A stretch of 64,000 nt of DNA, taken from NCBI RefSeq assembly GCF_030013205.1, contig NZ_CP122648.1; one strand, given 5' to 3'. The position numbers and the translations under genes are program-made. The notes beneath the pieces were generated by a model. That model saw nothing but the letters and a program-made list of their open reading frames with translations. It was not told the origin of the DNA and ran no database searches. Within the stretch, counting starts at the first letter, position 1; every line of letters starts with the position of its first letter. This DNA comes from Escherichia coli. Lineage in GTDB: Bacteria > Pseudomonadota > Gammaproteobacteria > Enterobacterales > Enterobacteriaceae. Below, piece by piece: positions 4,074 through 45,645 of the stretch.

Positions 4074-4147
4074 TGAAACATATTCAAATCCGCAATAGTG
4101 ATATGGCCTGGCATATTACTGCCAATAATCTGGGAAAAGTTTCATGA
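4073..4147 (+). CDS. ymjD: 24-codon small ORF (MKHIQIRNSDMAWHITANNLGKVS) bridging ycjY and ymjC
   Basis: ATG overlaps the ycjY stop (TAATG) and its TGA overlaps the ymjC ATG (ATGA); GAGGAA 12 nt upstream. Below the ORF-track length cut-off. Gene name is tentative. Confidence 0.3.
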   Translation: MKHIQIRNSDMAWHITANNLGKVS

Positions 4148-4770: not shown

Positions 4771-4803
4771 TTTAGTGTATGATGGTGTTTTTGAGGTGCT
4801 CCA

Positions 4804-5079
4804 GTGGCTTCTGTTTCTATCAGCTGTCCCTCCTGTTCAGCTACTGACGGGGTGGTGCGTAACGGCAAAAGCACCGCCGGACATCAGCGCTATCTCTGCT
4901 CTCACTGCCGTAAAACATGGCAACTACAGTTCACTTACGCCGCCTCTCAGCCCGGTACGCACCAGAAAATCATTGATATGGCCATGAATGGCGTCGGATG
5001 TCGCGCCAGTGCACGCATTATTGGCGTTGGCCTCAACACGATTTTCCGCCACTTAAAAAACTCAGGCCGCAGTCGGTAA
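4804..5079 (+). CDS. insA: IS1 InsA
   Basis: 91-aa ORF with zinc-finger-like CPSCS...CSHC N-terminus; matches recalled InsA. Confidence 0.9.
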
Positions 5080-5501
5080 CCTCGCGCATACAACCGGGCA
5101 GTGATGTGATTGTCTGCGCTGAAATGGACGAACAGTGGGGCTACGTCGGTGCTAAATCACGTCAGCGCTGGCTGTTTTACGCGTATGACAGGATGCGGAG
5201 GACGGTTGTGGCGCACGTCTTCGGTGAACGCACTCTGGCCACACTGGAGCGTCTTCTGAGCCTGCTGTCGGCCTTTGAGGTCGTGGTATGGATGACGGAT
5301 GGCTGGCCGCTGTATGAATCACGCCTGAAGGGAAAGCTGCACGTTATCAGCAAGCGTTATACTCAGCGCATTGAGCGGCATAACCTGAATCTGAGACAAC
5401 ATCTGGCAAGGCTGGGACGGAAGTCACTGTCGTTCTCAAAATCGGTGGAGCTGCATGACAAGGTCATCGGGCATTATCTGAACATAAAACACTATCAGTA
5501 A
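4998..5501 (+). CDS. insB: IS1 InsB (transposase catalytic part, made as an InsAB' fusion by -1 frameshift)
   Basis: 167-aa ORF overlapping insA in the -1 frame; matches recalled InsB. Confidence 0.85.

Positions 5502-6552: not shown

Positions 6553-6578
<26 letters not shown>
5850..6578 (+). CDS. mpaA: Murein peptide amidase A (gamma-D-Glu-meso-Dap amidase)
   Basis: ORF 5790-6578; start placed at MTVTRPRAER to give 242 aa. Recognised by sequence recall. Confidence 0.85.
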
Positions 6579-7559
<981 letters not shown>

Positions 7560-7635
7560 ATAGCGTTTGCTGTGTTATTGACAGTTAGCATAAACTAGGT
7601 GTGACGTTAACTATATGTAAACAGGAAAGATAATC

Positions 7636-8142
7636 ATGTCACAAACCGTTCATTTCCAGGGCAACCCGGTTACAGTCGCCAATTCCATCCCGCAGGCGGG
7701 TAGCAAAGCGCAGACTTTTACTCTCGTGGCAAAAGATCTGTCTGACGTCACCCTCGGTCAGTTTGCGGGTAAACGCAAAGTGCTGAACATTTTCCCGAGT
7801 ATTGATACCGGTGTTTGCGCCGCATCAGTACGTAAGTTTAATCAACTGGCAACCGAGATCGACAACACCGTTGTGCTGTGTATCTCTGCCGATCTGCCGT
7901 TCGCCCAGTCTCGTTTCTGCGGCGCAGAAGGTCTGAACAACGTTATCACCCTCTCCACTTTCCGTAATGCTGAATTCCTGCAAGCCTACGGTGTGGCAAT
8001 TGCTGATGGCCCACTGAAAGGTCTGGCAGCGCGTGCCGTTGTGGTTATTGATGAAAATGACAATGTGATTTTCAGCCAGCTGGTGGATGAAATCACCACC
8101 GAGCCGGATTACGAAGCAGCTCTGGCTGTACTGAAAGCATAA
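7636..8142 (+). CDS. tpx: Thiol peroxidase
   Basis: 168-aa ORF; recognised by sequence recall. Confidence 0.95.
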
Positions 8143-8145
8143 GTT

Positions 8146-8180
8146 AATATGCCTGATGGTGTTGCACCATCAGGCATATT
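8146..8180. terminator. Bidirectional intrinsic terminator between convergent tpx and tyrR (16-bp perfect stem, 3-nt loop)
   Basis: AATATGCCTGATGGTG-TTG-CACCATCAGGCATATT sits between the tpx stop (8140-8142) and the tyrR stop (8186-8188). Confidence 0.7.
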
Positions 8181-8185
8181 CGCGC

Positions 8186-9727
8186 TTACTCTTCGTTCTT
8201 CTTCTGACTCAGACCGTATTCCCGCAACTTATTGGCAATCGCGGTATGCGAAACGCCCAGGCGTTTTGCCAGTTTGCGCGTGCTGGGATAATTGCGATAA
8301 AGCTGGGTTAATACCGAGCGTTCAAAACGGCTGGTGATTTCGTCCAGCGAACCTTCCATCGCATCTTCGCCCACGGCTACCGTTGCGGCGTCATAATCCG
8401 GTAACAAAATATCCTGTGGACGCAGCTCATAACCGTCCAGTTGTGTCAGTGCGCGATAAATAGCGTTCTTTAACTGCCGCACATTTCCCGGCCACGCATA
8501 ACGCGTAAGTACAGTATTCAGGTCAGCGGCCAGTTTCGGACGCGGCACGCCCTGCTCGTCGGCAAAGCGGGCGACGAACAGCTCGGTTAACGGCATGATG
8601 TCCTGCGGACAGTCACGTAGCGGCGGCAGATTAAGCGTCAACACGTTCAGACGATAATAAAGATCTTCACGGAACACGCCTTTTTGCACCAGTTCGACAA
8701 GATTCTTCTGCGTCGCGCAAATCACCCGCACATCGACATGCACCTCATGGTCTTCGCCAACCCGACGGAAAGTGCCATCATTAAGGAAACGCAGTAATTT
8801 CGCCTGCATCCGTGGTGACATCTCACCTATTTCATCCAACAGCACCGAACCACCGTTCGCCTGCTCAAAGAACCCTTTCTTCCCTTCCGGAGCATGACCA
8901 AACAGTTCACTCTCGACCGCATCTTCCGGTATAGACGCACAGTTCAGCGCCAGATAGGGTTTGCCCGCGCGTGGGCTTGCCTGATGACAGGCATATGCAA
9001 AGAGATCTTTTCCGGTGCCGGTATCACCGGTTATCAGCAATGGCGCGCTTAGCATCGCCAGTTTCTGCGCCTGTTCGACAACATGCTTCATTTTCGGGCT
9101 GACGGCGACAATTTGACTGAAGGCGCTGACGTCCTGGGCGGCGACATTTTGCAACTGACGACCCATACGAATCGTTGATCGCAACATCACCACCGCACCG
9201 GTCAGGACGTGTTGATCATTTTCATCCTGAAGATAAACAGGCGTAATCTCCATCAGGAAATTCTGTCCATTAATAACGACATGCTCGTTATGGGAATCCT
9301 GCGGTTCGCTTTCCAGCCAGCGTAAAAAATTAAAGCCGTTAATCAATTGCGCGGCGGTATGGTTGCGCAGGCGATCCAATTTTTGCCCAAAAAGCTGACA
9401 GCTCGCCGGGTTCGCCATATCCACTTTGCTTTTCATATCGACAGAGAGCACAGGTTCAGGCAACGCTTCCAGTAACGCGCTCAACGCCAGATGCTCACGT
9501 TCAGAAGGCATCCACGGGACAGTACGGACATCGGTAACACCTGCAATACGGCGTATTTCGGCCATCAGACTGCTGAAACTCTCAAACTCCAGTTCAGCAA
9601 AATTGAGGTAGATTCGCCCAATGGGATCAATCTCAATACCGCGTAAATCAATGCCTCTTAGCACGAGTAGATCGAGTAATTCGCGGGTCAGACCGAGTCG
9701 GTCTTCACAAAAGACTTCCAGACGCAT
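8186..9727 (-). CDS. tyrR: Sigma54-type enhancer-binding-protein-family regulator TyrR
   Basis: ORF 8186-9754; start placed at MRLEVFCEDR to give 513 aa. Recognised by sequence recall. Confidence 0.9.
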   Translation of the reverse strand: MRLEVFCEDRLGLTRELLDLLVLRGIDLRGIEIDPIGRIYLNFAELEFESFSSLMAEIRRIAGVTDVRTVPWMPSEREHLALSALLEALPEPVLSVDMKSKVDMANPASCQLFGQKLDRLRNHTAAQLINGFNFLRWLESEPQDSHNEHVVINGQNFLMEITPVYLQDENDQHVLTGAVVMLRSTIRMGRQLQNVAAQDVSAFSQIVAVSPKMKHVVEQAQKLAMLSAPLLITGDTGTGKDLFAYACHQASPRAGKPYLALNCASIPEDAVESELFGHAPEGKKGFFEQANGGSVLLDEIGEMSPRMQAKLLRFLNDGTFRRVGEDHEVHVDVRVICATQKNLVELVQKGVFREDLYYRLNVLTLNLPPLRDCPQDIMPLTELFVARFADEQGVPRPKLAADLNTVLTRYAWPGNVRQLKNAIYRALTQLDGYELRPQDILLPDYDAATVAVGEDAMEGSLDEITSRFERSVLTQLYRNYPSTRKLAKRLGVSHTAIANKLREYGLSQKKNEE

Positions 9728-9797
9728 GGGAACCTTCACCTGAAAAAAGAACAATTAATATGATGATATGACACTATTTGGATAGCAGGAAGGTTTC

Positions 9798-9815
9798 TGT
9801 CAACAATCATTGACA
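9798..9815. promoter_or_regulatory. Candidate TyrR box (TGTCAA-N6-TTGACA) in the tyrR upstream region
   Basis: Palindrome fits the TGTAAA-N6-TTTACA pattern; tyrR is known to be autoregulated. Assignment of this particular site is inference. Confidence 0.4.
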
Positions 9816-9874
9816 CAAAGACGGAAAAACGGGCACTTCGGCGTAAAGATATCCGGTCAGCACCCGATATTGCA

Positions 9875-10936
9875 TTATTTTTCGCTGGGCGTTTTGCCTT
9901 TTTGCAGAGTTTCTTTCACCTGACCGATAAGCTGACGACGGAAATCCCCGAGGCGTGGCTTGTCATCGTCAATCCACGGCAGCGGGCGGCAAAGCTCCAT
10001 AGCTTTAATCCCCAGTCGTGCCGTCAGAAGTCCTGCACCAATCCCCTGAGCTGCGCGGGTAGACAAACGCGCAGCGAGATCTTGCGACATCCAGTCCATC
10101 CCCACTTCGCGAACCAGTTCGCTGGCTCCGGCGAAAGCGATATTCAGCAATACCAGCTTGAACAGGCGCAAACGGCTGTAATACCCCAGTTCAATGCCAT
10201 ACAGCGTGGCGATGCGATTAATCAAACGCAGATTGCGCCAGGCGATAAATGCCATATCCACCAGCGCCAGCGGGCTAACGGCGATCATTAACGTTGATTC
10301 CGCTGCCGAACGGCTGATTTCGCGCCGTGCCTGGGCATCTAAAACCGGCTGGACCAGATGAGCATACAGGCTGACCACTTCACGATCGTTCTGCGTTTCA
10401 TGGATTGAGGCATACCAGCGTTGCAGCGCCGGATGCGACTGATCAATACCCGCCTGCTGCGCCAGTTTTTCGCAGAATGCACGGCCTTTACCCGTGCCGT
10501 GACTGTGCAACAAATCGCGCGCTTCGTCGCGTTCATGGGCGCGCTGTCGCAAGCGCCATAAGCGCCGCCACTCTGTTACCACAGAACCTACGCCAGCGCC
10601 GATAATCAATGCCCCAGCGGCACATCCACCCAGCGCCACCCAGTCCTGGGTTTGCCAGGCGTTCATTGTCCACTGTACACCCTGCCCGACAACGCTTGCG
10701 CCAAACAGAGCCAACCCGCCCATCACCATTTTGCGCCACAGGCTGCGTTTCGGACGTAACGCTGCATCCATTACCGCTTCAACTTGCCCCTCTTCTTCCT
10801 GCGCTTCATCGAGCGTGGCCGGGGCAAAATTTTGCGCCTGATTTTCGTCAAAGGTCTGCTGCACCCTGAATTTTGGATTCTGATCGACCTCCAGTGGACC
10901 GTCGAAATCAATACGTGGTTTTAACGGTTCGGTCAT
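9875..10936 (-). CDS. ycjF: Inner-membrane protein of unknown function (UPF0283 family)
   Basis: 353-aa ORF with central hydrophobic segments; overlaps the ycjX stop by 4 bp. Confidence 0.85.
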
Positions 10937-12330
10937 CGCAATTTATCTCCTATTAAAAATTCCAGCGCAGCATCAAGGCGAATATGCGGCAGCGGTTTGT
11001 CGACATCCATCACCTGCGGACGAAACGCCTCAAACTGGAAGCCTTGCTTATCCCAGAACGCCTGACCAGGCAAACGTGCGGGAACTTCGCCAGGATAAAC
11101 AGTGAGCGGTGCGCCATCACTGAGTCGATTACCGCGCAGCGCCGGGATTTTCTCACCGTTAACATCAATAATGCCGCTGGTGGTCGCCTGAACTGACGCC
11201 AGCCCCAGGCAGTCCATGCTGATCCCTTCGAACGCCGCATTTTGCCAGGCATCCTGAATTAGTTGTTGCAGTAATGAAACCATATTGGCGTGCTGATCGA
11301 TGGTCACATGGTCTGCTTTAGTCGCAGCAAACAATAGCTTATCGATAACCGGCGAAAACAAACGCCGGAACAGGGTTCGCTGCCCGTAGTGGAAACTTTG
11401 CATCAGCTGCGTCAGCGCCAGACGCATATCATTAAATGCCTGTGGCCCACTGTTGAGAGGCTGCAGGCAATCCACCAGCACAATCTGGCGGTCAAAGCGC
11501 AGAAAATGATTCTTATAGAACCCCTTCACCACCTTCTCGCAATAATAATTAAAGCGCTCGCGCAGCATTCCGGCATTGGTATGCTTATCGGCCTGCGCCA
11601 GTTTGGACTCGCCCCAGGCATCGACATCCGGCCACGGGAAGAATTGCAGCGCGGGTGCTCCTGCCATATCTCCCGGCAAGACAAAGCGCCCAGGCTGAAT
11701 AAAGTGCAACCCCTGCTGTTTGCAGTGGTGGAGATACTCGGTCCAGGCGGCGGCAATGTCTGCCAGCCGGTTTTCGTCGGCAGGCGCTAGCGGGTCCAGC
11801 CCTTCGCACATCATTCGCCATTTCGCCGACCATTCGCCGCGCTGACCATTGAGTAAGCCCGTCATCTGGCGCGACCAGCTTAAATAGTCCTGCGCCAGCA
11901 TCGGCAGGTCGAGCAACCATTCGCCGGGGTAATCCACAATTTCCAGATACAGCGTGGAGGTGTCCTTAAAGTGGCGTAGCAGCGAATCGTTCGATTTAAA
12001 ACGTAACGCCAGGCGAATTTCACTGACGCCGCGCGTAGGCGTCGGCCAGGCGGGAGGATCGCCATATAACTGCGCCAACCCTTCATCATAGGTGAAGCGC
12101 GGAATGCCAAAGTCACGCTGGGGAATGCGTTTTACGCCCAGCAGGCGCTCTTCACGCACCGCACTTAAAAGCGGCAAACGTGCTCCGGCATGAATATTAA
12201 GCAACTGATTAACCATCGCGGTGATAAACGCTGTTTTGCCGCTGCGGCTAAGTCCGGTTACAGCGAGGCGCAGATGTCTGTCGACACCCCGATTCACCAG
12301 CGCATTAAGTTCATTTTTAAGTCGCTTCAT
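10933..12330 (-). CDS. ycjX: P-loop NTPase of unknown function
   Basis: 465-aa ORF; Walker A motif GLSRSGKT near the N-terminus. Confidence 0.85.
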
Positions 12331-12473: not shown

Positions 12474-13472
12474 ATGCCCCCTACTATTTATGATATTGCC
12501 AGGGTTGCAGGCGTATCAAAATCCACCGTATCACGCGTGCTGAATAAGCAAACCAATATCTCCCCGGAAGCGCGCGAAAAAGTGTTACGGGCCATTGAAG
12601 AATTACAGTATCAACCAAACAAGCTGGCACGCGCGCTGACCTCTTCGGGTTTTGATGCCATTATGGTGATTTCTACCCGTTCGACCAAAACTACGGCGGG
12701 TAATCCGTTTTTCTCGGAAGTTTTACATGCCATCACCGCCAAAGCTGAAGAAGAAGGTTTCGACGTGATATTGCAGACGTCGCACAACCTGGCAGAAGAC
12801 TTACAAAAATGCGAAAGCAAAATTAAGCAGAAAATGATTAAAGGCATTATTATGCTAAGTTCGCCAGCGGATGAGTCATTTTTTGCCCAACTCGATAAAT
12901 ATGATATTCCGGTGGTGGTAATTGGCAAAGTTGAAGGTCAATATGCCCATGTTTATTCTGTCGATACCGATAATTTTGGCGACAGCATTGCGTTGACCGA
13001 TGCGTTAATTGAAAGTGGGCATCAAAATATTGCCTGCCTGCATGCACCGCTTGATGTCCATGTTTCGGTTGACCGCGTTAATGGTTATAAGCAGAGTCTG
13101 GAAGATCATAATATTGCAGTGCGCAATGAGTGGATTGTTGACGGCGGTTATACCCATGAAACAGCCTTGCAAGCCGCACGGCAATTATTAAGCCAGTCGC
13201 CGTTGCCAGAAGCCGTATTTGCCACTGACAGCCTGAAATTAATGAGCATTTATCGTGCGGCAGCAGAGAAAAATATTGCTATTCCGCAGCAGTTAGTGGT
13301 GGTGGGTTATAGCAATGAAACGCTGTCATTTATTTTAACGCCTGCACCGGGCGGCATCGATGTTCCGACGCAGGAGTTAGGGCAACAAAGCTGCGAGTTA
13401 TTATTCCGCTTAATTGCCGGAAAACCGTCACCACAAAATATTACCGTTGCCACGCATATGTCGTTGAAATAA
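12474..13472 (+). CDS. ycjW: LacI-family transcriptional repressor
   Basis: 332-aa ORF with N-terminal LacI-type HTH ([20 protein letters not shown]). Confidence 0.85.
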
Positions 13473-13477
13473 ATGTA

Positions 13478-13509
13478 TGCCGGATTTGGCGCTCGCGCCG
13501 CATCCGGCA
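13478..13509. repeat. REP-like palindromic element between convergent ycjW and ompG
   Basis: Contains CGCCGCATCCGGCA, the reverse complement of the REP core GCCGGATGCGGCG. Confidence 0.45.
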
Positions 13510-13522
13510 ATTTAACCCATTA

Positions 13523-14428
13523 TCAGAACGAGTAATTTACGCCGACACCTGCATAATGGAATTTATCGCTGTCGCCTTCGTCGTGATCCTGCCACTCAAA
13601 CGCGTATTCCAGCGAAACGGAAAGACCATTCTGGAAATCATAACCGTAAAATAACCCCACACGGTTAAAATCATGGCCTTCACGTTCAATATCATCCTGC
13701 CAGTCCCAGTTACTCCAGCGATCCAGCCCAATGCGCGTATACGGCGTCACCGAGTGGTTGCCGAGCGTCAGCGGCAAATAGGCATGAATTTCTTGCGTGG
13801 AAAACTCACCGTTATTGCGACTGTCGTCCATATTGAAGCCGCGCTCGAGATAATAGTTCACTCGCAAAGCAACCGTTTCGTTGAAGGTATATTGCAGACC
13901 TGTTTCCGTTTCGACTCGGGTATCAGCGTAACCGGTCGTGTTCAGATCGTTGGCAAATTTATACATCGATAACCAACCGTTGAAACGTAAATCGTCAGTC
14001 AGTTTCACATCCCAGTCTGGCGCGATTTTCCAGCGCTGCATATTCGCCGTGTCTTTACCCGGTTCATCAACGTAGTGATAACCATAATTACGGAAACCGC
14101 CGGTCAGCCCGAAACTGAAATCATCGCTTTCGAGGAACTGATAATGCACCTCCAGCTCCGGGCGATCAAACCACGTTCCACGTTTACCCGCGCTATAATC
14201 TACCGGCCCTTCCTGATAATAGGCCAGAGAAATTCTCCACGGCCCGTTGGCGGCATTAAAATAGACAGAAGGCTCCGCGAGCCCATCCATATCTTCGCCA
14301 TAACCCTCGACGTTTTCTATTTCGTACATCGCGCCGATATTAAAGTGCCAGTCGTTCTTTTCCTCGGCCTGTGCGCAAGCCATTCCCGCACACATCACCA
14401 GTGCGGTACAAGGTAATAATTTTTTCAT
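13523..14428 (-). CDS. ompG: Outer-membrane porin OmpG
   Basis: 301-aa ORF with signal peptide and C-terminal aromatic residue (...GVNYSF). Confidence 0.9.
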   Translation of the reverse strand: MKKLLPCTALVMCAGMACAQAEEKNDWHFNIGAMYEIENVEGYGEDMDGLAEPSVYFNAANGPWRISLAYYQEGPVDYSAGKRGTWFDRPELEVHYQFLESDDFSFGLTGGFRNYGYHYVDEPGKDTANMQRWKIAPDWDVKLTDDLRFNGWLSMYKFANDLNTTGYADTRVETETGLQYTFNETVALRVNYYLERGFNMDDSRNNGEFSTQEIHAYLPLTLGNHSVTPYTRIGLDRWSNWDWQDDIEREGHDFNRVGLFYGYDFQNGLSVSLEYAFEWQDHDEGDSDKFHYAGVGVNYSF

Positions 14429-14472
14429 TATTGTTCCTTGTATTATCCTGGGGGAATGCCTTCCCCCTGTAT

Positions 14473-15555
14473 TTAGCGAATTGCTATTTCCATTTCTGCA
14501 TCAAAGAAATGACATTTAGTCATATCAAAATGAATAGTGATATTTTCTCCTGCATGATAATCATTTAACGCACCAGCACGGACCACCAGTTCGTGCCCCC
14601 CAACCGTGGTGTAGAGCATAAATTCAGCACCGGTTAATTCTGCCACGCTAATTTTGGCGGAAATGTTATTTTCCTCTTGCGCGTCCGGATGAATATCTTC
14701 CGGGCGTATTCCCATCACGATGGGCTTATGCAAACTTTCCTGTGTTTTCAGAACCGCTAATTTCTCTTCGGGAATGGTTAATTTAAGCGTTTCAGTAACG
14801 AATTTATCGCCATCGATCGTGCCGCGAATAAAATTCATCGCCGGTGATCCAATAAATCCGGCAACAAACATATTCGCGGGTTGGTTATAAACCGTTTTCG
14901 GCGCACCTACTTGCTGAACAATCCCATCCTTCATAATCACAATCCGCGTCGCCATGGTCATCGCTTCGGTCTGATCGTGGGTCACGTAGATCATGGTGGT
15001 GTTCAGTTTCTGATGCAGCTTGCTGATCTCTGCGCGCATTTGTACGCGCAGCTTGGCATCAAGGTTAGAGAGCGGTTCATCCATTAAAAACACGCCCGCT
15101 TCGCGCACAATCGCCCGCCCGAGCGCCACACGCTGGCGTTGCCCGCCGGAAAGCGCCCCCGGCTTGCGTTTCAGGTACTCTCGCAGACCGAGAATTTGCG
15201 CCGCCCAGTTCACCCGCTCATCAATCACCTCTTTGGCGATTTTTTGCATCTTCAGGCCAAACGCCATGTTGTCGTAAACCGTCATATGCGGATACAACGC
15301 GTAGTTCTGGAACACCATCGCGATATTGCGTGCTTTGGCTGGAACGTCGTTCATTCGTTTGCCGTCGATCAACAGATCGCCGCCGCTGATCTCCTCAAGC
15401 CCGGCAATCATGCGCAGGGTGGTCGATTTACCGCAGCCCGACGGGCCGACAAATACGATGAACTCTTTATCGGCAATTTCCAGGTTGAAGTCCTTCACCA
15501 CATGCACCTGGTTATCGTAGATTTTTTGAATATGTTGTAACGAAAGCTGAGCCAT
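14473..15555 (-). CDS. ycjV: ABC transporter ATP-binding protein (MalK-like), intact here
   Basis: 360-aa ORF with Walker A GPSGCGKST and signature LSGGQRQR. Confidence 0.85.
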   Translation of the reverse strand: MAQLSLQHIQKIYDNQVHVVKDFNLEIADKEFIVFVGPSGCGKSTTLRMIAGLEEISGGDLLIDGKRMNDVPAKARNIAMVFQNYALYPHMTVYDNMAFGLKMQKIAKEVIDERVNWAAQILGLREYLKRKPGALSGGQRQRVALGRAIVREAGVFLMDEPLSNLDAKLRVQMRAEISKLHQKLNTTMIYVTHDQTEAMTMATRIVIMKDGIVQQVGAPKTVYNQPANMFVAGFIGSPAMNFIRGTIDGDKFVTETLKLTIPEEKLAVLKTQESLHKPIVMGIRPEDIHPDAQEENNISAKISVAELTGAEFMLYTTVGGHELVVRAGALNDYHAGENITIHFDMTKCHFFDAEMEIAIR

Positions 15556-15568
15556 GTTGATTCCTTTG

Positions 15569-16228
15569 CTATACGTTTTGCCAGAAGGCCGATAACCGCG
15601 GCCAGGTGAGTGATTCCGTTGAGGGCAACAATAATTGCGCCCCGGTTAAGCCTGCGCCGATCCCCACCGAGCGCATACCGCTGGCGTTAATGGCGTCAAT
15701 GCCCGCCTGCGCATCTTCAATGCCGATACATGCCTGCGGCGGCACGCCCAGTCCGGCACAGGCGGCGAGAAAGATTTCCGGGTCCGGTTTCGAGTTTTTA
15801 AGTTGGGAAGCGTCCGCGCAGAAGGTGAAAAACTCACGCAGCTCCAGTGCATCTAAAATCGTCGGCGCATTGAGGGAGACAGAAGCCAGCCCTACCGGGA
15901 TCTGTTGTGCACGGAGATCTGTCAGCAAAGAGCGAATGCCGGGCAGCACAGCATTAACCGTCAGTTCGCGCAATGAATGGACGTAGAGCAGATTTTTGCG
16001 ATACGCCAGTTGCGCCCGTTCCTGTGGGTTAAAATCGCCCTCTTTACCCCCGTGTTGCAGAATGCGGCGCAGAGACTCATCGCGGCTGATCCCTTTTAGA
16101 GTTTCGTTAAACTGCGCATCAATGCTGATGCCAATTTCAGCGGCAATCTGCTGCCACGCCTGGAAATGCAGATGCGCGGTATCGGTGATTACTCCATCCA
16201 GATCGAAAATTACCCCTTGCAGTTTCAT
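15569..16228 (-). CDS. ycjU: Beta-phosphoglucomutase (HAD superfamily)
   Basis: 219-aa ORF with HAD motif I ([10 protein letters not shown]). Confidence 0.85.
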
Positions 16229-18492
16229 TCATTCTCCTGATGCGTGGTAGCGGTCCCATTGAAGGGCAAAATAAAATCACCCAAACAGAAAACAGATTCT
16301 TCAGCCACAGATATAAGCTGCCCGTTCAAACGCAGTGAAACGGGCGCAGAAGTTCGAATCGCAATACGCTGCGCGTCGAGAGTGACCTGTAATTCGCAGC
16401 CCTGCCAGAACAGAGGGAAAGACAACTGTTGCCACTGCACAGGTAACGCCGGATTCAAATTTAATTCACCGTCACGCACGCTCACCCCGGCAAAACCCTG
16501 AATCGCCCCCAGCCAGATAGCGCCAGTTGCGGCAGCATGGATACCGTCGTCGCAGCTATGCGGGTCAGCACCGAGATCGATTTCAGTCCCCTCCCGCCAG
16601 AACTGATAACTTTGCGCCAACAGGCCACAGCGTGCGGCAACAATGCCGTGGATCGCTTTACTCAGTGAAGAGTCGTGAATGGTGCGCGGTTCATAAAATT
16701 GCAGATTGGCAAGACACGATGCCGCTGAGTACTGCTCCGGCAGCATGTAATTGAGCATCACCACATCAGCTTGTTTGAGGATCTGCATCTCGTTCACTTC
16801 TGCGCGTGAATAATCCAGCAGAATGGTTTGCTTCCCCGCCGCCGCTTTGTATTTCGCCAGATTAATCGCTGGTTTCGCCATAAACGAATCATCCTGCGGC
16901 AAAACGCCGTCGGGCTGAATTTCTGGCAGCCGCAGTTCTTTAAGGAACATTTCGGCGCGATGGATAAATGCATCGTCGCTACAGCCAAACTGGCGGGCAA
17001 TACTCAGCGCCTGCTGGACGTTGTAATACGCCATATAGCTGGTGAAGGCGTTATTATTGACATGTTCGGTATATTCGTCAGGCCCAATAACATCATGAAT
17101 TTCCAGACGGTCGTTAACCCTCACCGCGCGGCTAATCCAGAACTTTGCAGTTTCCAGAAGTAGCGCCATGCCTTCATGCGCAATGAAACTTTCATCCCCC
17201 GTGGTCTGCCAGTATTGAATAACCGCCCAGGCGATATCGGCCACCAGATGATGTTCCGCCTGCGCCGAGGCCACTTTTTGCCGCAGCCCGGTGCGAATGT
17301 TAATGGCGGCAAATTCCGGCGTCTCTTCTTCGCCGCTGCGCGCGCTTTCCCACGGAAATAGCGCGCCCTGCCAGCCGTTGCGTCGCGCTTTCTCCTGCGC
17401 GCCTGGCAAGTTGTGCCAGCGATAACGCAGTAAACTTCTGGCAATCGTCGGTTCGCTAAACAGATGGAACGGCAGTAAAAATACTTCCGTATCCCAGAAA
17501 ACGTGGCCTTTGTAGCCTTCCCCGGTCAAACCTTTTGCCGCAATACTGCTGCGCTCGTCGTGAGCAGGCGTCATGATGCGTAGGTGATAAAGCGCATAAT
17601 CTAACGCTTGCTGATCGTGCGCATCGCCACCGTTTACCGTGATACGACGTTTCTGCCACCATTGACGCCAGTTTTCTGTGGATGCTGCAAGAAGTTGGTC
17701 GTAACTCTGCTGTACACACATTTCAAGCTGACGAAGCGACGCACTGCCCCACTCGTCTAAAGCGACGTGCCTGTCATCCCGCCAGTCGATCCACACCAGT
17801 TTTTGCAGCGTCAGCGTTTCGCCTGCGTGAAGTTGCGCACTGGTATGTTGCAGCAAGCGGCGCTCTTTGGCGGTATAGCATTGCTGCACATCACCGCTCA
17901 CCTTACAGCAACAGCTGATGGCCACATCACTGCGCCCATCCTGGGTGGTGTAGATCCCCTGCATCAGATGCTGACCAAATACCCGCACCTGGGTTTCGTC
18001 GAGATGTTGGCGACCGTGGTTGGTTTGCGTGGCGTCAATGCCTGTTGAAATCAGCACTGACGCGTCGGCGTCCAGCGCAGTAATAGTGATTTCCAGTGCA
18101 ATCAGCGGCAGGTGGTCTGCCGAAACAAAGCGACGGCTGGCGATGGTGTAACGCGCGCCGTTGCTGGTACACCAGACAACGTTGCGGCGTAATTCGCCAC
18201 TGGCAAAGTCAAGCTCACGCTGCCATGTTTCGCGGGATAACGAGAAAACCTCACCATTTATGGCAATCTCCATCCCCACGACATCAGGCAGGTTCACCAG
18301 TTCGTTGATTTCACCCTTACCCGCTCGATGATACAGCCCCGCCAGATACATGCCGCGCGTCTGGCGCGTGTAATCTTCTTCATGGCTGGCGCGAAGCCCA
18401 AGATAGCCGTTCCCCTGCGCCATCAGTGAAGCATATTTGTTCAGGGTATGCTGGCTGAAATGGGGTTCTGATAACGTTACTGGCCTGGTCAT
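16225..18492 (-). CDS. ycjT: Glycoside hydrolase family 65 phosphorylase (kojibiose phosphorylase)
   Basis: 755-aa ORF; 4-bp overlap with ycjU and ycjS. Confidence 0.85.
16243..16259. promoter_or_regulatory. 17-bp exact repeat (minus strand ATGGGACCGCTACCACG) 15-31 nt upstream of the ycjU start; candidate YcjW operator
   Basis: Identical 17-mer at 26172-26188 upstream of ycjM. Operator assignment is inference. Confidence 0.35.
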
Positions 18493-19544
18493 AATTCCAC
18501 ACGCGTCCCTGTTTCTGCGGATTGATACAACGCCGCCACCAGTTGCTGGATGATGTATCCCTGCTCGGCGTCGGCTATCATCACGGGCTTGCCCTGTACG
18601 TGATTGATAAAGGATTCCATACTGCGCAGATGACGGTTGTCGTCTGCCATTTCCCGTTGCATCAGCGTCATTAACTCACCGTTGTTATCGGTATAGATAT
18701 GTGCTGGAAACAGCGTTGCACCAGCTTTATCACCACAAAAGCTGACGTTCATAATCGACTGTTCGCGGATGTTGAGTGCAAATGACGTTTCCAGCCACAG
18801 AATGCCGCCGTTATGAAATTCAATGGTGCCAAATAACGAATCTTCGACGCTGTAAGTTGCCGGATCCCACTCGCCAAATTGACCACAGCTCTTTTGTGTG
18901 CCGATCTTTTGAAAGCTATGCGCGGTCACGCTTTTCACCGCCGGAAAGCCCAGTACATACATCGCCGCATCCAGCATATGAATGCCGATGTCGATCAGCG
19001 GCCCGCCGCCCTGCAATTCTTTATTGGTAAAAACGCCCCAGCCGGGAACGCCGCAGCGACGCAGGGCGCGGGCGGTGGTAACGTAAATCTCTCCCAAAAC
19101 GCCGTTGGTCACCTGTTCACGCAGCTGTTGCGTATCGAGTGCAAAACGATGGTGAAAGTCGTAGGCCAGCACCTTGCCCTGTTTGCGCGCGGTATCGCAC
19201 ATTTCCCGCGCCTGTTCTGGCGTCATGGCGGGCGGTTTTTCGCACATCACATGGCAGCCCGCTTCCAGCGCCATCAGGGTATGTTCGTAATGAAAACGGT
19301 TAGGTGAGCAGACGCTAACCACATCAGGTTTCACCGCCAGCAGCATGGCCTGCGGATCGTCCCACACGGATGCATTCCCGTATTTTTCTGCCAGCGCCTG
19401 CGCCTGGGAAAGGCGGCTGTCACAGACAGCCACCAGTTCCAGATCGTTGCGGGTGCAGTAGTACGAAGCATGAACCTTATCCGCCACCTGGCCTGCGCCG
19501 ATTATCGCGACCCGCAGTGGAGAGCTTGTCATTGCACTTTTCAC
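18489..19544 (-). CDS. ycjS: Gfo/Idh/MocA-family NAD-dependent oxidoreductase
   Basis: 351-aa ORF with N-terminal Rossmann motif (VAIIGAGQVA). Confidence 0.85.
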   Translation of the reverse strand: MKSAMTSSPLRVAIIGAGQVADKVHASYYCTRNDLELVAVCDSRLSQAQALAEKYGNASVWDDPQAMLLAVKPDVVSVCSPNRFHYEHTLMALEAGCHVMCEKPPAMTPEQAREMCDTARKQGKVLAYDFHHRFALDTQQLREQVTNGVLGEIYVTTARALRRCGVPGWGVFTNKELQGGGPLIDIGIHMLDAAMYVLGFPAVKSVTAHSFQKIGTQKSCGQFGEWDPATYSVEDSLFGTIEFHNGGILWLETSFALNIREQSIMNVSFCGDKAGATLFPAHIYTDNNGELMTLMQREMADDNRHLRSMESFINHVQGKPVMIADAEQGYIIQQLVAALYQSAETGTRVEL

Positions 19545-19553
19545 AAAGACCTC

Positions 19554-20342
19554 TTAGCAGGTACGCAACCAGGCCAAAGAATCACGGTACGCCTGGGCAG
19601 GATTTTCTGCCCGGATACGCCCTTCATACACCACATAACCCTGATAGTTATCGGCGCGCAGCTGTTCAAACAGCGCGTGGAAATCGAGGGTGCCGCTGCC
19701 CGGCTGGTAACGATGGTTATCGGCAATATGCACATGACCGAGCAGGTCGCGGTTGTCGTGCAGCGCCTGCGCCAGGTTATCTTCTTCGATATTCATGTGA
19801 TAGAAATCGCCGATAATCTGCACATGTTTAAGATCGTTTTCGACGATGTAACGACGAGCATCGGCGAGGGTGTTGATCATGTGATCCTGATAGCGGTTTA
19901 ACGGTTCGAGGTACACCACGGTTCCGGTACGCGCGGCTACCTGTTCCAGCACGCGCAGGGAATCACTCACCATTTTGCGGTCGCCATCCAGGCTGCGCGG
20001 CGAGGTCATCGGCGGTAAACGGAAGGTAAACATGCCCCATGCAGCAGGAACGACGATACCTTTACCGCCCACTTCGGCCAGCGCTTCAAGAATGCGTTCG
20101 ATCTGCTTTAAGCCATTAAGACGACGCTCTTCGATAAAGTCGCCAATCCAACCGTCATAGCCACCGCAGGCGGTGGTCACCGGTAAGCCGGTTTCTTTGA
20201 TTGCCGCTTTGACTTCTTCGATATTGTTGACCAGCAGTTTGCCGTCAATCTCAAAAATATCGAAGCCCATCTCTTTGATATAACGAAATTTCTCCAGAAT
20301 GTTTTCTGGAAAGAACGCCTGATTCTGTGTGCCGATTTTCAT
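19554..20342 (-). CDS. ycjR: Sugar-phosphate isomerase/epimerase (TIM-barrel)
   Basis: ORF 19554-20351; start tentatively placed at MKIGTQ to give 262 aa. Confidence 0.8.
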   Translation of the reverse strand: MKIGTQNQAFFPENILEKFRYIKEMGFDIFEIDGKLLVNNIEEVKAAIKETGLPVTTACGGYDGWIGDFIEERRLNGLKQIERILEALAEVGGKGIVVPAAWGMFTFRLPPMTSPRSLDGDRKMVSDSLRVLEQVAARTGTVVYLEPLNRYQDHMINTLADARRYIVENDLKHVQIIGDFYHMNIEEDNLAQALHDNRDLLGHVHIADNHRYQPGSGTLDFHALFEQLRADNYQGYVVYEGRIRAENPAQAYRDSLAWLRTC

Positions 20343-20360
20343 TTTTATCATTCCTTTGAA

Positions 20361-21413
20361 TTAAAACGTGACGCCCATTTTGATGCTCTGTTCCGGATGC
20401 TGGTCGACATACTGCATGTAACTTTCCGGGCTATTGGCAAAGGTCACCACCGGGTCGATTAAATCTTCACAATTGAGATAACCGTTCATCAGCAGTTCCC
20501 AACAGGTTTCTTCGATACGTTTGCGGCTCCAGCGCGGATAATCCGGGTTCGGCTCGCTGCACGCACGGGAGAAAACAATTTTGGCGTTATTGAAATGGGC
20601 TTCGCGTCCGAGGTTAAAACCTTCGGCAAACGGTTTGGCAAACGCGACATACGAGATGGTGCCGCCATATGCCAGGCCGCGAAGCGCCGATTGCAGCGCG
20701 TCGGCGTAACCGCTGGTTTCGATAATCACATCGGCACCCTGCTTGCCGGTCAGCGTTTTGATCTCTTTGCCTACGTCAGTGCCAATAGGGTTAAGGCAGA
20801 AATCCGCACCGTGTCGACGAGCAATATCACAACGATGGGCAATAGGATCGACGCCAATTACCACCGATGCGCCAGCGCGTTTCGCCAGTTGGATGGCAAT
20901 TTGACCGATCGCGCCAAGCCCTACCACCACGACAAAATCCCCTACGCGCACGTTGGCATCGCGCACGCCGCTCATGGCAAACTGCGCCGGGTCGTAGCAG
21001 ACGGCGTTTTTCCACGAACTGCCTTGCGGCATTTTGCGCAGCTTGTAGTTATTCACCGCGTTAATGATGACCGTTTCGGAAAGCGGGCCGTAGCCGCATA
21101 CGCTGTCGCCCACCGCGTAGTCGGTAACGTCGCTGCCGCACTCGATAATGTCGCCAACCACCATGTTGCCAAGCTGGAATTTGCCAAACTCAATGCCGCG
21201 CGGCGCATCTGCCGGACGCGGGGTAAACATCTGCCATTCGCCGTTAAAGTCTTCATCGATAAACGGGCTGGCGGCGCGGAAATCGACCACTTCCGTTCCA
21301 TGTTTCGGCGCGCCGAAACGCACGCGGATCTTCACTTCATTGGCTAAAATCGCCCGATCTTCATACTCAACCAGCGCAGCTACGCGCGGTGCTGTGGCTA
21401 CTAACTTTTTCAT
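20361..21413 (-). CDS. ycjQ: Zinc-dependent medium-chain dehydrogenase
   Basis: 350-aa ORF with GxGxxG NAD-binding motif (VVGLGAIGQ). Confidence 0.85.
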   Translation of the reverse strand: MKKLVATAPRVAALVEYEDRAILANEVKIRVRFGAPKHGTEVVDFRAASPFIDEDFNGEWQMFTPRPADAPRGIEFGKFQLGNMVVGDIIECGSDVTDYAVGDSVCGYGPLSETVIINAVNNYKLRKMPQGSSWKNAVCYDPAQFAMSGVRDANVRVGDFVVVVGLGAIGQIAIQLAKRAGASVVIGVDPIAHRCDIARRHGADFCLNPIGTDVGKEIKTLTGKQGADVIIETSGYADALQSALRGLAYGGTISYVAFAKPFAEGFNLGREAHFNNAKIVFSRACSEPNPDYPRWSRKRIEETCWELLMNGYLNCEDLIDPVVTFANSPESYMQYVDQHPEQSIKMGVTF

Positions 21414-21443: not shown

Positions 21444-22286
21444 TTAGCCCTTCACGCCACCGGCGGTCAAACCACTCTTAATAAAACGCTCCGAAAGCGC
21501 ATACATAATCACCACCGGCAATGCGGTCACCAGTGAGGCCGCCATCATCCGTCCCCAGATGTAATCAGGCGTACTGAACAGCGCGTTCAGGCCCACCGGT
21601 AAGGTGAAATTGCTGGCGCTGGAGAGGAAAATCGACGCAAACAGATAGTCGTTCCATGCCACCATAAAGCAGTAGACGAACACGGATATCAGCCCCGACA
21701 TCGCCAGGGGCACGGTGATACGGAAGATGATTTGCAGACGGTTGAGGCCATCCATCATCGCCGCTTCTTCGATCTCATCAGGGATGGTGTCGAAGTAGCT
21801 TTTCAGCATAAACACGGCGGTGGGCAGGGTTTGCGTCACCATGGTAATGATCAGCGCCATCTCGGTGTCGTAAATGCCCAGCGCGGTGATGATTTTGAAC
21901 AGCGGCACCACCAGCAAAATGCCAGAGAACATATACACCGTGTAAAAGCTGGCATTGATGGTCATCCGACCTTTAAAGCGCAGGCGGGAAAGCGCGTAAG
22001 CCCCAAGAATGCCGAGGAATACCGCCACCACGGATGAAACCACCGACACCACCAGACTGTTACGGAAGTAGTCGACAAACGGGAAAATCATCGGGTTAAA
22101 AATGTCGACGTAATGCTCCAGCGTCCACTGCTGCGGCAGCAGCGTAGGATGCAGTGAGATCGCCTCTTTCGCGCCCTTGAACGAGGTCATCAGCATCACA
22201 AAAAATGGAAACAGCGTGATGATGAGAAACAGCGCCAGCCCGCAGTAAAAACCGATGCGACTGAGTGTGCGTTTATTTGTTGCCAT
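21444..22286 (-). CDS. ycjP: ABC sugar transporter permease
   Basis: 280-aa multi-pass membrane ORF. Confidence 0.85.
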   Translation of the reverse strand: MATNKRTLSRIGFYCGLALFLIITLFPFFVMLMTSFKGAKEAISLHPTLLPQQWTLEHYVDIFNPMIFPFVDYFRNSLVVSVVSSVVAVFLGILGAYALSRLRFKGRMTINASFYTVYMFSGILLVVPLFKIITALGIYDTEMALIITMVTQTLPTAVFMLKSYFDTIPDEIEEAAMMDGLNRLQIIFRITVPLAMSGLISVFVYCFMVAWNDYLFASIFLSSASNFTLPVGLNALFSTPDYIWGRMMAASLVTALPVVIMYALSERFIKSGLTAGGVKG

Positions 22287-23154
22287 TGAGGTTCACCCGT
22301 TTCCTGGTCAGCAGAATGACAGCGAAAATAATGATGAAGAGCACCACCGAGATCGCCGCCGCTTTTCCTAAATCATTAAAGGCAAAGGCGGTTTTGTAGA
22401 GATATACACCGAGAATATCGACCTTGGTCGTCAGCAAATAAACATCCGCGAACATGTAGAACATCCAGATGGTGCGCAGGGTCACCACCGTCGCCAGGAC
22501 CGGCATAATCGCGGGCAGCGTGACGATGCGAAACCGTTGCCAGGCATTAGCGCCATCCATCTCTGCCGCTTCGTACAGCGATTTGTCGATGGTCTGCAAA
22601 ATCGCCAGAAACGAGATGAAGGCATACGGGAAGTAGCGCCAGATGGCGAACAGCACCACCAGCACAAAGCTACTGCCCGGATTATCGAACCACAGCGGCG
22701 CCTGCTCGTAGAGATGCAGAAGATCGACGCCGAGGTAGTTCACAATGCCGTAGCCGTTGTTGAACATGTATTTCCAGGCGAACACCAGCGAAATGGACGG
22801 CGTTACGTAGGAGAGGATCACCAGCGAACGCGCGGTTTTGCGCAGGCGGAACTCGCGGTTGAAAAACATCGCCACGGCCAGCCCGAGTACGGTGCTGCCC
22901 GCCACCACCAGCGCCGTATACCAGACCGTCATCCACAGCGAGTGCCAGAAGCCGGGATCGGAGAGAATGCGCACATAGTTACTCACCCCAACAAACGTTG
23001 ACTCGATGTTGGGATTGAGCGGCAGACGTAAAAAACTGATTTCGATATTCGACACCATCGGCCACGCCACCAGACCGCCCAGCAGTAATAAGCTGGGCGC
23101 GAGAAGCAACAGCGCAAAGGGCATATCGGAACGACCTGAAAAAAGCCTGTTCAT
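22273..23154 (-). CDS. ycjO: ABC sugar transporter permease
   Basis: 293-aa multi-pass membrane ORF; overlaps ycjP. Confidence 0.85.
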   Translation of the reverse strand: MNRLFSGRSDMPFALLLLAPSLLLLGGLVAWPMVSNIEISFLRLPLNPNIESTFVGVSNYVRILSDPGFWHSLWMTVWYTALVVAGSTVLGLAVAMFFNREFRLRKTARSLVILSYVTPSISLVFAWKYMFNNGYGIVNYLGVDLLHLYEQAPLWFDNPGSSFVLVVLFAIWRYFPYAFISFLAILQTIDKSLYEAAEMDGANAWQRFRIVTLPAIMPVLATVVTLRTIWMFYMFADVYLLTTKVDILGVYLYKTAFAFNDLGKAAAISVVLFIIIFAVILLTRKRVNLNGNK

Positions 23155-23174: not shown

Positions 23175-24467
23175 TTAGTGCTGTTCAACCAACTCATCCA
23201 GCTTTTTCTGGCTCGTTTGCAGCGTGGTAGAGAGGTCGGCTTTACCCACGGTGACGTTATGCACCATGGAGCTCACCACGCCAGAACCCGTCACATCGCC
23301 CATGCGGGTAAAATTTTTATCCCCTACTGCGCCAAAGACCTGAATATTTGGCAGTTCGCTGATTAACTGATTTGGCAGCTCACCCAGCGCCTTAATAACG
23401 TCGTTGTCTTTCCAGGTGGCGGTAGTGACAACCGCTTTGTTCACCGGCAGCGCCGCGCCTGGCGACATCATCACCCAGTCGGCAATGTTGTCTGCCTGCT
23501 CCATAAAGGTGACAAATTTTTCAGCCGCTTCGGTCTCTTCAGTCTTTTGCCCGGCGGTAATGGTCAGCGAGGTCAACATGCCGTAGACCGCAGAGTTTTT
23601 CTCCGTTGGCACCACGAAACCGACGTTTTTCGGATCGCCTTCTTTAATCACAGCCGGAAGGATATAGGTGGAGTAAATCGCCATCGGCGCGGTGCCGTTC
23701 ATAAAGGCATCTTTCACTTCCATGATGTCGTTAGAACCCGGCATGGTGTTGGCGGCAAGGTCGCGGTAATAGGTCAGCGCCTGCATCATCTCTGGTGTAT
23801 CAAGGGTGATTTTGCCTTCGGCGTTAAAGACGTTGGCCTGGTTGGATAACGCAAACTGGGAGAAGGATTGTTCCGTCAGCACGCTTTCTGCCGTAGGCAG
23901 CGCAATACCGTATTTTTTATTCGCCGGGTCATTCAGTTTCTGTGCAACGTCCAGCAGCTGTTGCCAGTTTTTCGGCTCCTCCAGCCCCGCTTTTGCCAGC
24001 ACATCTTTGCGATACCAGATGCCGCCAATCCAGGCGCTGACCGGAACACCGGTCCAGGCGCTGCCATCTTCGGTGCGCACAATACGCAGTACGCCATCGT
24101 AGAACGCGCCTTCACCAACGTTGCTGATGACCGTGGCAACCGCTTTACGATCGATAAGCTGCTCTTTGTCCATAACTTTGGCGTAGTCATGGCTGGTTTC
24201 GATCACTTCCGGCAGCGAGCCGCTACGTGACAGGGTTATGACTTTGGTGTTATAGGCATCTTCTTCCACTGGCACTTGTTTAACGGTGATGCCCGGGTTT
24301 TCTTTTTCAAAACGGGCAATCAATTTACTGATAACGGCCTGACGCTCCTGCTCCACCGAAGAATGCATAAATTCGATGGATACATGGGTTTTATTTTCTT
24401 CTTTACAGCCTGAAATCAGGGCGCAGGAAACCAGTGCTGATAACAGCACGATTTTTGATTTAATCAT
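23175..24467 (-). CDS. ycjN: ABC transporter periplasmic sugar-binding lipoprotein
   Basis: 430-aa ORF with signal peptide and lipobox (LISGC). Confidence 0.85.
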   Translation of the reverse strand: MIKSKIVLLSALVSCALISGCKEENKTHVSIEFMHSSVEQERQAVISKLIARFEKENPGITVKQVPVEEDAYNTKVITLSRSGSLPEVIETSHDYAKVMDKEQLIDRKAVATVISNVGEGAFYDGVLRIVRTEDGSAWTGVPVSAWIGGIWYRKDVLAKAGLEEPKNWQQLLDVAQKLNDPANKKYGIALPTAESVLTEQSFSQFALSNQANVFNAEGKITLDTPEMMQALTYYRDLAANTMPGSNDIMEVKDAFMNGTAPMAIYSTYILPAVIKEGDPKNVGFVVPTEKNSAVYGMLTSLTITAGQKTEETEAAEKFVTFMEQADNIADWVMMSPGAALPVNKAVVTTATWKDNDVIKALGELPNQLISELPNIQVFGAVGDKNFTRMGDVTGSGVVSSMVHNVTVGKADLSTTLQTSQKKLDELVEQH

Positions 24468-24481: not shown

Positions 24482-26161
24482 TTATTTAATCCACATAACC
24501 TGCCAGGGGCGCAGCGTTATTTCATTACCCAATATATCAACTTCACTAATCAGATCCCGACCGTGCAGATCAGTAATATTTATATGCTGAATATTTTCAC
24601 TGACATTAAACAATCCTGTCAGACAATTACCATCCGCGTTGTTTCTTTGAATACGCATTACGGATGAATTAACCGTATCGATGGTAAAATCATTATCCGG
24701 ATGAAACTCGTTATGACTGCAACGAAGTGTAATTAAACGCGACAACTGATGATATACCGCATGCCTTAATGTATCTTCATCGTTCAGTTCTCGGGTTATC
24801 TCTTCATTGTGATATTTTTTACGGTTAATCGCACGGTTATATCCCAGTTTTTCGACACCTGCGTAATCATTACGCGAGCCAAGAATACTTTGAATATATA
24901 TCGCTGGCACACCGGGGAAACTTAACAAAATCGCATGGGCAAGGATAAACCTGGCGCAACGTTCTACATCGCTACTCTCGCGGCGGCTTAACGCATCCAT
25001 ATAGGTGACATTTATTTCATAGGGACTGCGCGTACCGTCGGGATTATTTTTCCAGTTTACTAATGCACCTTCCTGCTGTAATGCCTCGACCAGCGCTAAT
25101 ATTTCGCTTTCGGGTAACAAGCCACGCAGTGGGTTCGGCCCGATGCCATCGTGAGAGGCGAGGAAGTTAAACCAGGTGGTGTTGCTGGAAGGTAGTGTCA
25201 GGTTTTGCGCCCACGCACAAAGCGCCTCAACGTTCTGTTTTTGCACCGCATGCAGCACCAGCGGCGGCAGCGAGAACTGGTACACCATATGTGCTTCGTC
25301 ATCGCCTTCGCCAAAGTAAGCAATGTTGTCTTTATGCGGAACATTGGTCTCGGTAATGATCACTGTGCCTGGCGCGACGTTATCAATAATCGACCGTAAC
25401 AGTTTGATAATCAGATGTGTTTTTTCCAGATGGATGCAGCTTGTTCCCGGCTCTTTCCATATAAAGCCAACGGCATCCAGACGGACGTATTCCGCGCCCT
25501 TTTCCAGATAACACAGCAATACATCCACCATCGCCAGCAACACTTCAGGGCTACGGTAATTGAGGTCAATTTGATCGTCGCTAAAGGTGGTCCATAAATG
25601 GCGCGTGGAATTATCATCCATTTGAAACGGTGTTAATAGCGGTAACGCACGCGGACGGGTGACGGCGCTGAGATCGGTTTGCGGATCAACCGCAATAAAA
25701 AAATCTTCAAAACCTGGATGCTGTTGTAAATAGTTTTTAAACCATTCACTTTTTGCCGACATATGGTTGCAGACAAAATCAAACATTAAATGACTGCATT
25801 CACCGAGTTGCTGAATATCCTGCCACTCCCCCGCTTCACTGGCGACCTGATGATAATCAATTACCGAAAACCCATCATCAGATGACCATGGATAAAAAGG
25901 TAATAAATGAACATGTGAAAAAATGCTTTGCAGCCATTGATGGTAAAACTGATTAAATGTGGGTAGTGGTTTTAAATCATTACTGTGAAATTGATCAGCA
26001 TAGGTAATTAACACGACATCACTTTCATCCCAGTGTTTTTTACGTCGCTGTGTAATTAATCGTTTCGCACTCTCAAGACGCGTTACAAGTTTCTGTAAAT
26101 GAGTTGCGGTAAATGTTCCACCGTAGATTTCGTCCAGGTAATCCGTAATTTTCTGTTTCAT
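24482..26161 (-). CDS. ycjM: GH13 sucrose-phosphorylase-family enzyme (glucosylglycerate phosphorylase)
   Basis: ORF 24482-26188; start placed at MKQKITDY (GGAAAGG 6 nt upstream) to give 559 aa. Confidence 0.85.
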   Translation of the reverse strand: MKQKITDYLDEIYGGTFTATHLQKLVTRLESAKRLITQRRKKHWDESDVVLITYADQFHSNDLKPLPTFNQFYHQWLQSIFSHVHLLPFYPWSSDDGFSVIDYHQVASEAGEWQDIQQLGECSHLMFDFVCNHMSAKSEWFKNYLQQHPGFEDFFIAVDPQTDLSAVTRPRALPLLTPFQMDDNSTRHLWTTFSDDQIDLNYRSPEVLLAMVDVLLCYLEKGAEYVRLDAVGFIWKEPGTSCIHLEKTHLIIKLLRSIIDNVAPGTVIITETNVPHKDNIAYFGEGDDEAHMVYQFSLPPLVLHAVQKQNVEALCAWAQNLTLPSSNTTWFNFLASHDGIGPNPLRGLLPESEILALVEALQQEGALVNWKNNPDGTRSPYEINVTYMDALSRRESSDVERCARFILAHAILLSFPGVPAIYIQSILGSRNDYAGVEKLGYNRAINRKKYHNEEITRELNDEDTLRHAVYHQLSRLITLRCSHNEFHPDNDFTIDTVNSSVMRIQRNNADGNCLTGLFNVSENIQHINITDLHGRDLISEVDILGNEITLRPWQVMWIK

Positions 26162-45637: not shown

Positions 45638-45645
45638 ATTATTCC

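Follow-up and report, generated by a model that had tools for sequence, protein, structure and literature searches.

Among ATP-binding subunits of solved structure, the one closest to YcjV is MsmX of B. subtilis (6yir), which aligns over the full length including the regulatory barrel (E=8e-148), followed by other sugar-importer ATPases with the E. coli MalK structures among them (E~1e-100). The regulatory domain of MsmX, residues 236-365, folds into one mixed barrel built from 3 helices and 11 strands, and YcjV and MsmX share 64% identity (PMC7658222). According to the supplement of the same study (Leisico et al. 2020), the ycjV gene of K-12 was repaired by insertion of a G in codon 320, which restored a 360-aa reading frame. 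The main text describes the repaired 360-aa YcjV as accumulating and keeping its ATPase activity (PMC7658222).

The passages of PMC6599011 considered here report that deletion of ycjW derepresses the operon, that YcjW gives two ChIP-seq peaks, the second of them 'between ycjT and ycjU', and that kojibiose as sole carbon source supports no growth of MG1655, which ycjW deletion does not help; those of PMC11543891 report that YcjN showed no binding to any sugar in the screen, which included kojibiose. In these passages, and in those of another YcjN study, YcjV is named as the NBD and the K-12 frameshift goes unmentioned. Metabolic-engineering papers choose 'the pseudogene ycjV locus' for integration, treating it as a neutral site, and re-sequencing tables list ycjV as a pseudogene, and our literature search for ymjB, the name given to its detached 3' part, returned nothing useful about the pseudogene. 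Here, we analyse ycjV in a 64-kb stretch of E. coli DNA, which we refer to as the window.

Results

An intact ycjV within a complete importer operon

The first-pass annotation had claimed a full 360-codon ORF at 14473-15555 with Walker A, signature and Walker B motifs, and this holds throughout: the frame runs uninterrupted from ATG to TAA and all three motifs can be read directly in the sequence. Its coordinates and length were right; the strand, which it had omitted, is minus. Its further suggestion of a complete ABC importer with its own ATPase gene is likewise supported, as ycjN, ycjO, ycjP and ycjV are all intact and are accompanied by ompG. The cluster is arranged as follows:

12474-13472, plus strand: ycjW, divergent, LacI-family repressor of the cluster (annotation; role from PMC6599011)
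13523-14428, minus strand: ompG, monomeric outer-membrane porin, the operon's last gene
14450-14467: GC-rich stem-loop with a 7-bp stem within the 44 nt separating ycjV and ompG, reading GGGGGAA-GGCA-TTCCCCC on the operon strand (terminator-like scan)
14473-15555, minus strand: ycjV CDS, 360 codons plus TAA, a CUT1 / MalK-UgpC-MsmX-type ABC ATP-binding subunit (ORF list, Pfam, NCBIfam)
15556-15568, minus strand: ycjU-ycjV spacer of 13 nt in which AAGGA, a Shine-Dalgarno-like sequence, stands 7 nt before the ATG (sequence reading)
15569-16228: ycjU (pgmB), which precedes ycjV
15569-21413, minus strand: ycjQ, ycjR, ycjS, ycjT and ycjU (pgmB), intact genes for sugar-converting enzymes between the permease genes and ycjV
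21444-22286, minus strand: ycjP, permease, 0 aa differences from K-12 (ORF, annotation)
22273-23154, minus strand: ycjO, permease, 0 aa differences from K-12 (ORF, annotation)
23175-24467, minus strand: ycjN, lipoprotein substrate-binding protein, 5 aa differences from K-12 (ORF, annotation)
24482-26161, minus strand: ycjM, glucosylglycerate phosphorylase, the operon's first gene

Apart from ycjV, all of these genes (ycjM, N, O, P, Q, R, S, T and U, ompG and ycjW) are intact and equal in length to their K-12 counterparts. ycjV lies ~6 kb downstream of the permease genes, on the same strand and not adjoining them, and YcjN, YcjO and YcjP are the presumed partners of its product. The ETEC1748 annotation has WP_063085945.1 as ycjV at identical coordinates, the exact protein is recorded on 291 contigs, and the members listed of both YcjV clusters are nearly all 360 aa long, one partial entry having 351 aa.

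A scan for sigma-70 promoters over 13300-16700 yielded fewer matches than shuffled controls and none upstream of ycjV on the operon strand, and we therefore propose no separate ycjV promoter. Terminator-like matches were not above shuffled expectation. The stem-loop between ycjV and ompG was rejected as a classic intrinsic terminator because the operon strand carries no T-tract; it may act in mRNA stability or processing.

Within ycjV, the domains and motifs are located as follows, the motifs being verified by translation:

15070-15495, minus strand: ABC_tran domain (PF00005), aa 21-162, E=1.2e-31, 110.5 bits against a cut-off of 25 (Pfam)
15424-15447, minus strand: Walker A, GPSGCGKS, aa 37-44
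15307-15315, minus strand: Q-loop, VFQ, aa 81-83
15139-15153, minus strand: signature, LSGGQ, aa 135-139
15073-15093, minus strand: Walker B, VFLMDEP, aa 155-161
15058-15069, minus strand: D-loop, SNLD, aa 163-166, just downstream of ABC_tran
14974-14982, minus strand: H-switch, THD, aa 192-194, just downstream of ABC_tran
14503-14850, minus strand: C-terminal regulatory domain, aligning end to end with that of MsmX and composed of OB_MalK (aa 236-288, E=1.6e-14, 54.9 bits against a cut-off of 27) and TOBE_2 (aa 282-351, E=5.1e-10, 39.8 bits against a cut-off of 21) (Pfam)

Among the NCBIfam models, the UgpC-type subfamily NF008653 scores 483.6 bits, above its cut-off of 432, and these domain and subfamily matches exclude a chance ORF. 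The MalK equivalog NF008233 reaches 430.5 bits, below its cut-off of 568; we accordingly rejected YcjV as MalK proper and regard it as a paralogue. The domain score and the presence of all six motifs identify YcjV as an ABC_tran nucleotide-binding subunit, and its place in CUT1 follows from the MalK-type OB and TOBE regions after the NBD, the curated family score, and the substrate-binding protein and two permeases that are co-encoded with it.

The K-12 allele lacks one G of a run of six

That ycjV is a pseudogene in K-12 had been stated in the first-pass annotation, which also proposed a check against the K-12 locus. Both the annotation of NC_000913.3 and our alignment confirm the statement: the K-12 allele is frameshifted, neither intact nor equivalent. 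In NC_000913.3 the gene appears as two abutting pseudogene pieces, ycjV (b1318, 1380821-1381789) and ymjB (b4524, 1381789-1381902), and in DH5alpha PGAP flags ycjV as 'frameshifted'. Pairwise alignment of the window with the MG1655 gene (NC_000913.3) shows 26 substitutions and one gap, corresponding to 97.5% nucleotide identity. The gap falls into a homopolymer near the 3' end of the gene:

14596-14601, minus strand: G6 run (CCCCCC on the plus strand), gene positions 955-960, codons 319-320 (alignment with NC_000913.3)
14476-14598, minus strand: codons 320-360, the 41 residues missing from the K-12 product, which persist out of frame as ymjB (frame translations)

Where the window has GGGGGG, K-12 has GGGGG and is missing one G; the K-12 frame ends with ...TTVGG-TS-stop, giving a 322-aa product. 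A K-12-type G5 allele in the window is excluded by the G6 run and the open frame. The frameshift cuts the TOBE_2 match at aa 319 and takes away roughly half of the TOBE barrel, and because the cut splits the region homologous to the single barrel of MsmX, the K-12 regulatory domain should not fold.

Against the frame-repaired K-12 gene, the window differs by 24 synonymous and 2 non-synonymous substitutions (A232S, M355T; dN/dS = 0.022), the two 360-residue proteins thus differing at 2 positions, and 3' of the frameshift we counted 4 synonymous and 1 non-synonymous differences. This low ratio, together with a synonymous excess even downstream of the lesion, indicates that ycjV was strongly constrained until very recently; the K-12 lesion is too recent for subsequent decay of the gene. 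Both the lesion and its repair have already been published, so that the intact allele of the window correctly reproduces a strain difference already on record.

The intact gene had also been offered as further evidence that the window is not from K-12, a conclusion that stands, and the evidence for it is much stronger than ycjV by itself would provide: besides the divergence of ycjV, it comprises near-complete identity to ETEC1748 and genes absent from K-12. Over 24 kb around ycjV, the window matches a group of porcine ETEC / O139:H1 genomes with 100% identity, and the entire window corresponds to positions 2754695-2818694 of NZ_CP122719.1 (ETEC1748, porcine ETEC) with zero mismatches and one base missing.

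Other features of the window

Over 64 kb, the missing base is all that separates the window from ETEC1748, and it lies in ycjG (L-Ala-D/L-Glu epimerase; 6553-7559, minus strand), which is frameshifted in the window by an indel at ~7087: where ETEC1748 reads GCGCCTGCC, the window reads GCGCTGCC, lacking one C, and the 321-aa frame present in ETEC1748 and K-12 is divided into two 161-aa ORFs at 6553-7038 and 7074-7559. The indel represents a very recent mutation or else an assembly error. A shortened frame was also seen for pgrR (ycjZ; 2115-3015, minus strand), the LysR-type repressor beside mppA, whose ORF in the window has 255 aa compared with 299 aa in K-12. In ETEC1748, where the sequence is identical, the annotation gives pgrR as a pseudogene interrupted by an internal stop.

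Between sapF and fabI, where K-12 has only ycjD (DUF559), the window contains a five-gene efflux cluster (44474-52065) consisting of an MFS transporter, an outer-membrane factor, an RND permease (1035 aa), a periplasmic adaptor and a TetR/AcrR regulator. Between ycjY and mpaA (4144-5500) there is an intact gene for a 208-aa SDR-family oxidoreductase followed by IS1 (~4803-5500); the corresponding site of K-12 contains just the small ymjC/ymjD ORFs, possibly remnants of the SDR gene. The convergent spacer between ycjW and ompG (13473-13522) measures 50 bp in the window and 110 bp in K-12, the ~60 additional bases of K-12 looking REP-like, GC-rich and palindromic.

The six-G allele is the species norm

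To place the two alleles within the species, we surveyed 5,426 complete E. coli genomes by exact matches to an allele-specific 35-mer for G6 and a 34-mer for G5. The counts refer to the G-run alleles alone. The G6 35-mer was found exactly in 4582 of the 4981 genomes holding the stretch, the G5 34-mer in 374 of 4959, and ~8% of the complete genomes had no match to the ycjV stretch. Intact ycjV, as judged from the G run, is therefore the species norm (~92% of the complete genomes holding the stretch), and K-12 is the exception.

Among the matches listed, the G5 genomes are nearly all laboratory derivatives of K-12 (MG1655, DH5alpha, C600, J53, DH1, NCM3722 and others). The G5 allele also occurs in at least three non-K-12 strains, 2014C-3051, 95-3192 and 08-00022, all annotated as frameshifted:

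1571-2652 in the loci of 2014C-3051, 95-3192 and 08-00022: G5 frameshift of ycjV, on three distinct non-K-12 haplotypes

Common descent of the non-K-12 alleles was rejected, as the four G5 alleles (K-12 and the three strains) are separated pairwise by 5-23 substitutions. The non-K-12 cases reflect either recurrent slippage in the G run or homopolymer errors in those assemblies.

Lesions of other kinds were seen in two further loci. In CFSAN018748 (4826-7093), ycjT has an internal stop although ycjV is identical to that of the window, and in FEX669 (7068-11023) a deletion joins a truncated ycjT to ompG with the loss of ycjU and ycjV, and ycjR contains an internal stop. With these lesions and the ~8% of genomes lacking a ycjV match, the cluster is not universally kept, which suggests that selection for the system is conditional.

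Candidate YcjW operators lie upstream of the operon and of its distal part

By comparing the ycjM and ycjU regions with each other, we found a shared 17-mer, ATGGGACCGCTACCACG, with the core TGGGACCGCTACCA and a central CG, in two places:

16243-16259, minus strand: 17-mer within the final ycjT codons, 15 nt before ycjU begins
26172-26188, minus strand: second copy of the 17-mer, preceding the start codon of ycjM by 11 nt

A central CG is a feature of LacI-type operators. The core occurs in only these two copies within the window, and by our arithmetic the chance expectation for an exact 17-mer shared by regions of 260 nt and 450 nt is < ~1e-5. A screen near ycjM and ycjU for LacI-type palindromes with <=2 mismatches to perfect palindromy returned nothing. 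The two positions coincide with both YcjW ChIP-seq peaks as these are placed in the passages of PMC6599011 considered here. The 17-mers are probably YcjW operators, one of them embedded in the coding sequence of ycjT, and their location at the ChIP peaks, together with the derepression of the operon that those passages describe for the ycjW deletion, suggests that ycjU, ycjV and ompG are co-regulated with the permease genes.

Discussion

We conclude, with a probability that we put at roughly 0.8, that the ycjV gene of the window is an ordinary functional allele encoding the cognate ATPase of a YcjN-YcjO-YcjP importer and that K-12 carries a recent loss-of-function variant. In the mechanism we propose, OmpG would let an alpha-glucoside-type substrate enter the periplasm, the lipoprotein YcjN would capture it there, and a YcjV dimer, by homology with MalK and MsmX, would dock on YcjO/YcjP and drive uptake through ATP hydrolysis, with the OB/TOBE domain presumably acting as a regulatory and dimer-contact module. 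In K-12, one G has slipped from the G6 run at codon 319/320, with loss of the last 41 residues. YcjV would energise YcjNOP, a function that the truncation in K-12 would abolish. Counting against this reading are the ~6 kb between ycjV and the permease genes, the failure of YcjN to bind any sugar screened (PMC11543891) and the incomplete retention of the cluster among E. coli genomes.

The main competing explanation is that MalK or UgpC can energise YcjOP, in which case YcjV would be dispensable and the K-12 frameshift effectively neutral. UgpC and MalK of E. coli are exchangeable (Hekstra and Tommassen, as cited in the passages of PMC7658222 considered here), YcjV scores well against the models of both, and K-12 has retained the G5 allele, which at least three unrelated strains also carry. 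The same citation, however, describes the exchange as less efficient than the native pairing, and neither YcjV nor MalK can replace MsmX in B. subtilis, which argues that cross-energising is not general (PMC7658222). The dN/dS of 0.022 moreover points to strong constraint on the gene itself, retention of intact ycjV by ~92% of genomes would be unexpected of a redundant gene, and K-12 strains live under laboratory conditions, in which the operon is repressed. We therefore consider dispensability of YcjV improbable.

More doubtful still is the idea that the 322-aa product of K-12 is a working ATPase subunit and that 'pseudogene' overstates the difference from the window. It is true that the catalytic domain (aa 1-235) with all motifs lies upstream of codon 319, that the regulatory domain alone is clipped and survives in part, and that older K-12 records such as BAA14893.1 still annotate a 322-aa protein; yet the frameshift interrupts the TOBE_2 barrel midway, the loss of 41 residues should block folding, and RefSeq and PGAP flag the G5 alleles as frameshifted or pseudo in the annotations we examined. 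A single-base difference in a G5/G6 run is also the classic site of a long-read assembly error, and 2014C-3051, 95-3192 and 08-00022 may, we presume, be long-read-only assemblies, in which homopolymer errors are common. For the intact frame such an explanation is excluded, with G6 present in 4582 independent complete genomes and the 360-aa protein on 291 contigs, and the K-12 G5 has been reproduced in hundreds of independent re-sequencings; sequencing error is a possible explanation for the three non-K-12 G5 cases alone. The K-12 allele was, furthermore, encountered at the bench during cloning of the gene, and Leisico et al. repaired the frameshift before protein work (PMC7658222), while the lack of growth of MG1655 on kojibiose, as given in the passages of PMC6599011 considered here, also speaks against a working K-12 subunit.

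With window ycjV as a functional allele and K-12 ycjV as a lost one, it is a reasonable idea that the K-12 lesion may contribute to the negative kojibiose and substrate results. A stronger version, in which the frameshift is the hidden cause of the missing ycj growth substrate and the G6 run is in addition a recurrent inactivating slippage hot spot, is rather unlikely in our estimation. On that version, G6 carriers, this ETEC lineage among them, would import the real substrate and grow on it. The occurrence of G5 on at least four different haplotypes means that the run may be such a hot spot; slippage there would then switch the importer off in independent lineages. Work on the ycj genes has been done almost entirely in K-12, whose ycjV is frameshifted, which calls for caution, and work on the substrate of the importer is best done in a strain with G6 or in K-12 after repair of the gene. 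For the interpretation of the genome at hand, the window shows only a non-K-12 E. coli with the species-typical ycjV allele.

Comparison with known ATPases

YcjV shares with MsmX the architecture of a RecA-like, a helical and a regulatory domain. The genetic settings differ: msmX is an orphan gene whose product serves several importers, whereas ycjV belongs to an operon with its own permeases. At four positions where the multitask ATPases have charged residues (D77, R104, E110 and K154), YcjV has N77, Q104, V110 and G154, in agreement with PMC7658222, and it fails to complement an msmX null mutant (PMC7658222). Because YcjV is operon-encoded, differs in these charged residues and does not complement msmX, we rejected it as a 'multitask' ATPase of the MsmX / MsmK type. 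The likeness to UgpC lies in NF008653, which is the best-scoring NCBIfam model for YcjV and describes a subfamily, not an equivalog, and the K-12 fragment is even called 'UgpC' in some databases; the context of UgpC, however, is ugpBAECQ, an importer of sn-glycerol-3-phosphate, whereas that of ycjV is a glucoside-catabolic operon. With MalK (1q12 / 2r6g), YcjV has the NBD and the OB/TOBE region in common (E=6e-100 over residues 1-352). YcjV is not known to share the regulatory interactions of MalK with MalT and EIIA-Glc. Both are operon-encoded, MalK being the dedicated ATPase of a CUT1 sugar importer, and where MalK partners MalEFG, YcjV would partner YcjNOP.
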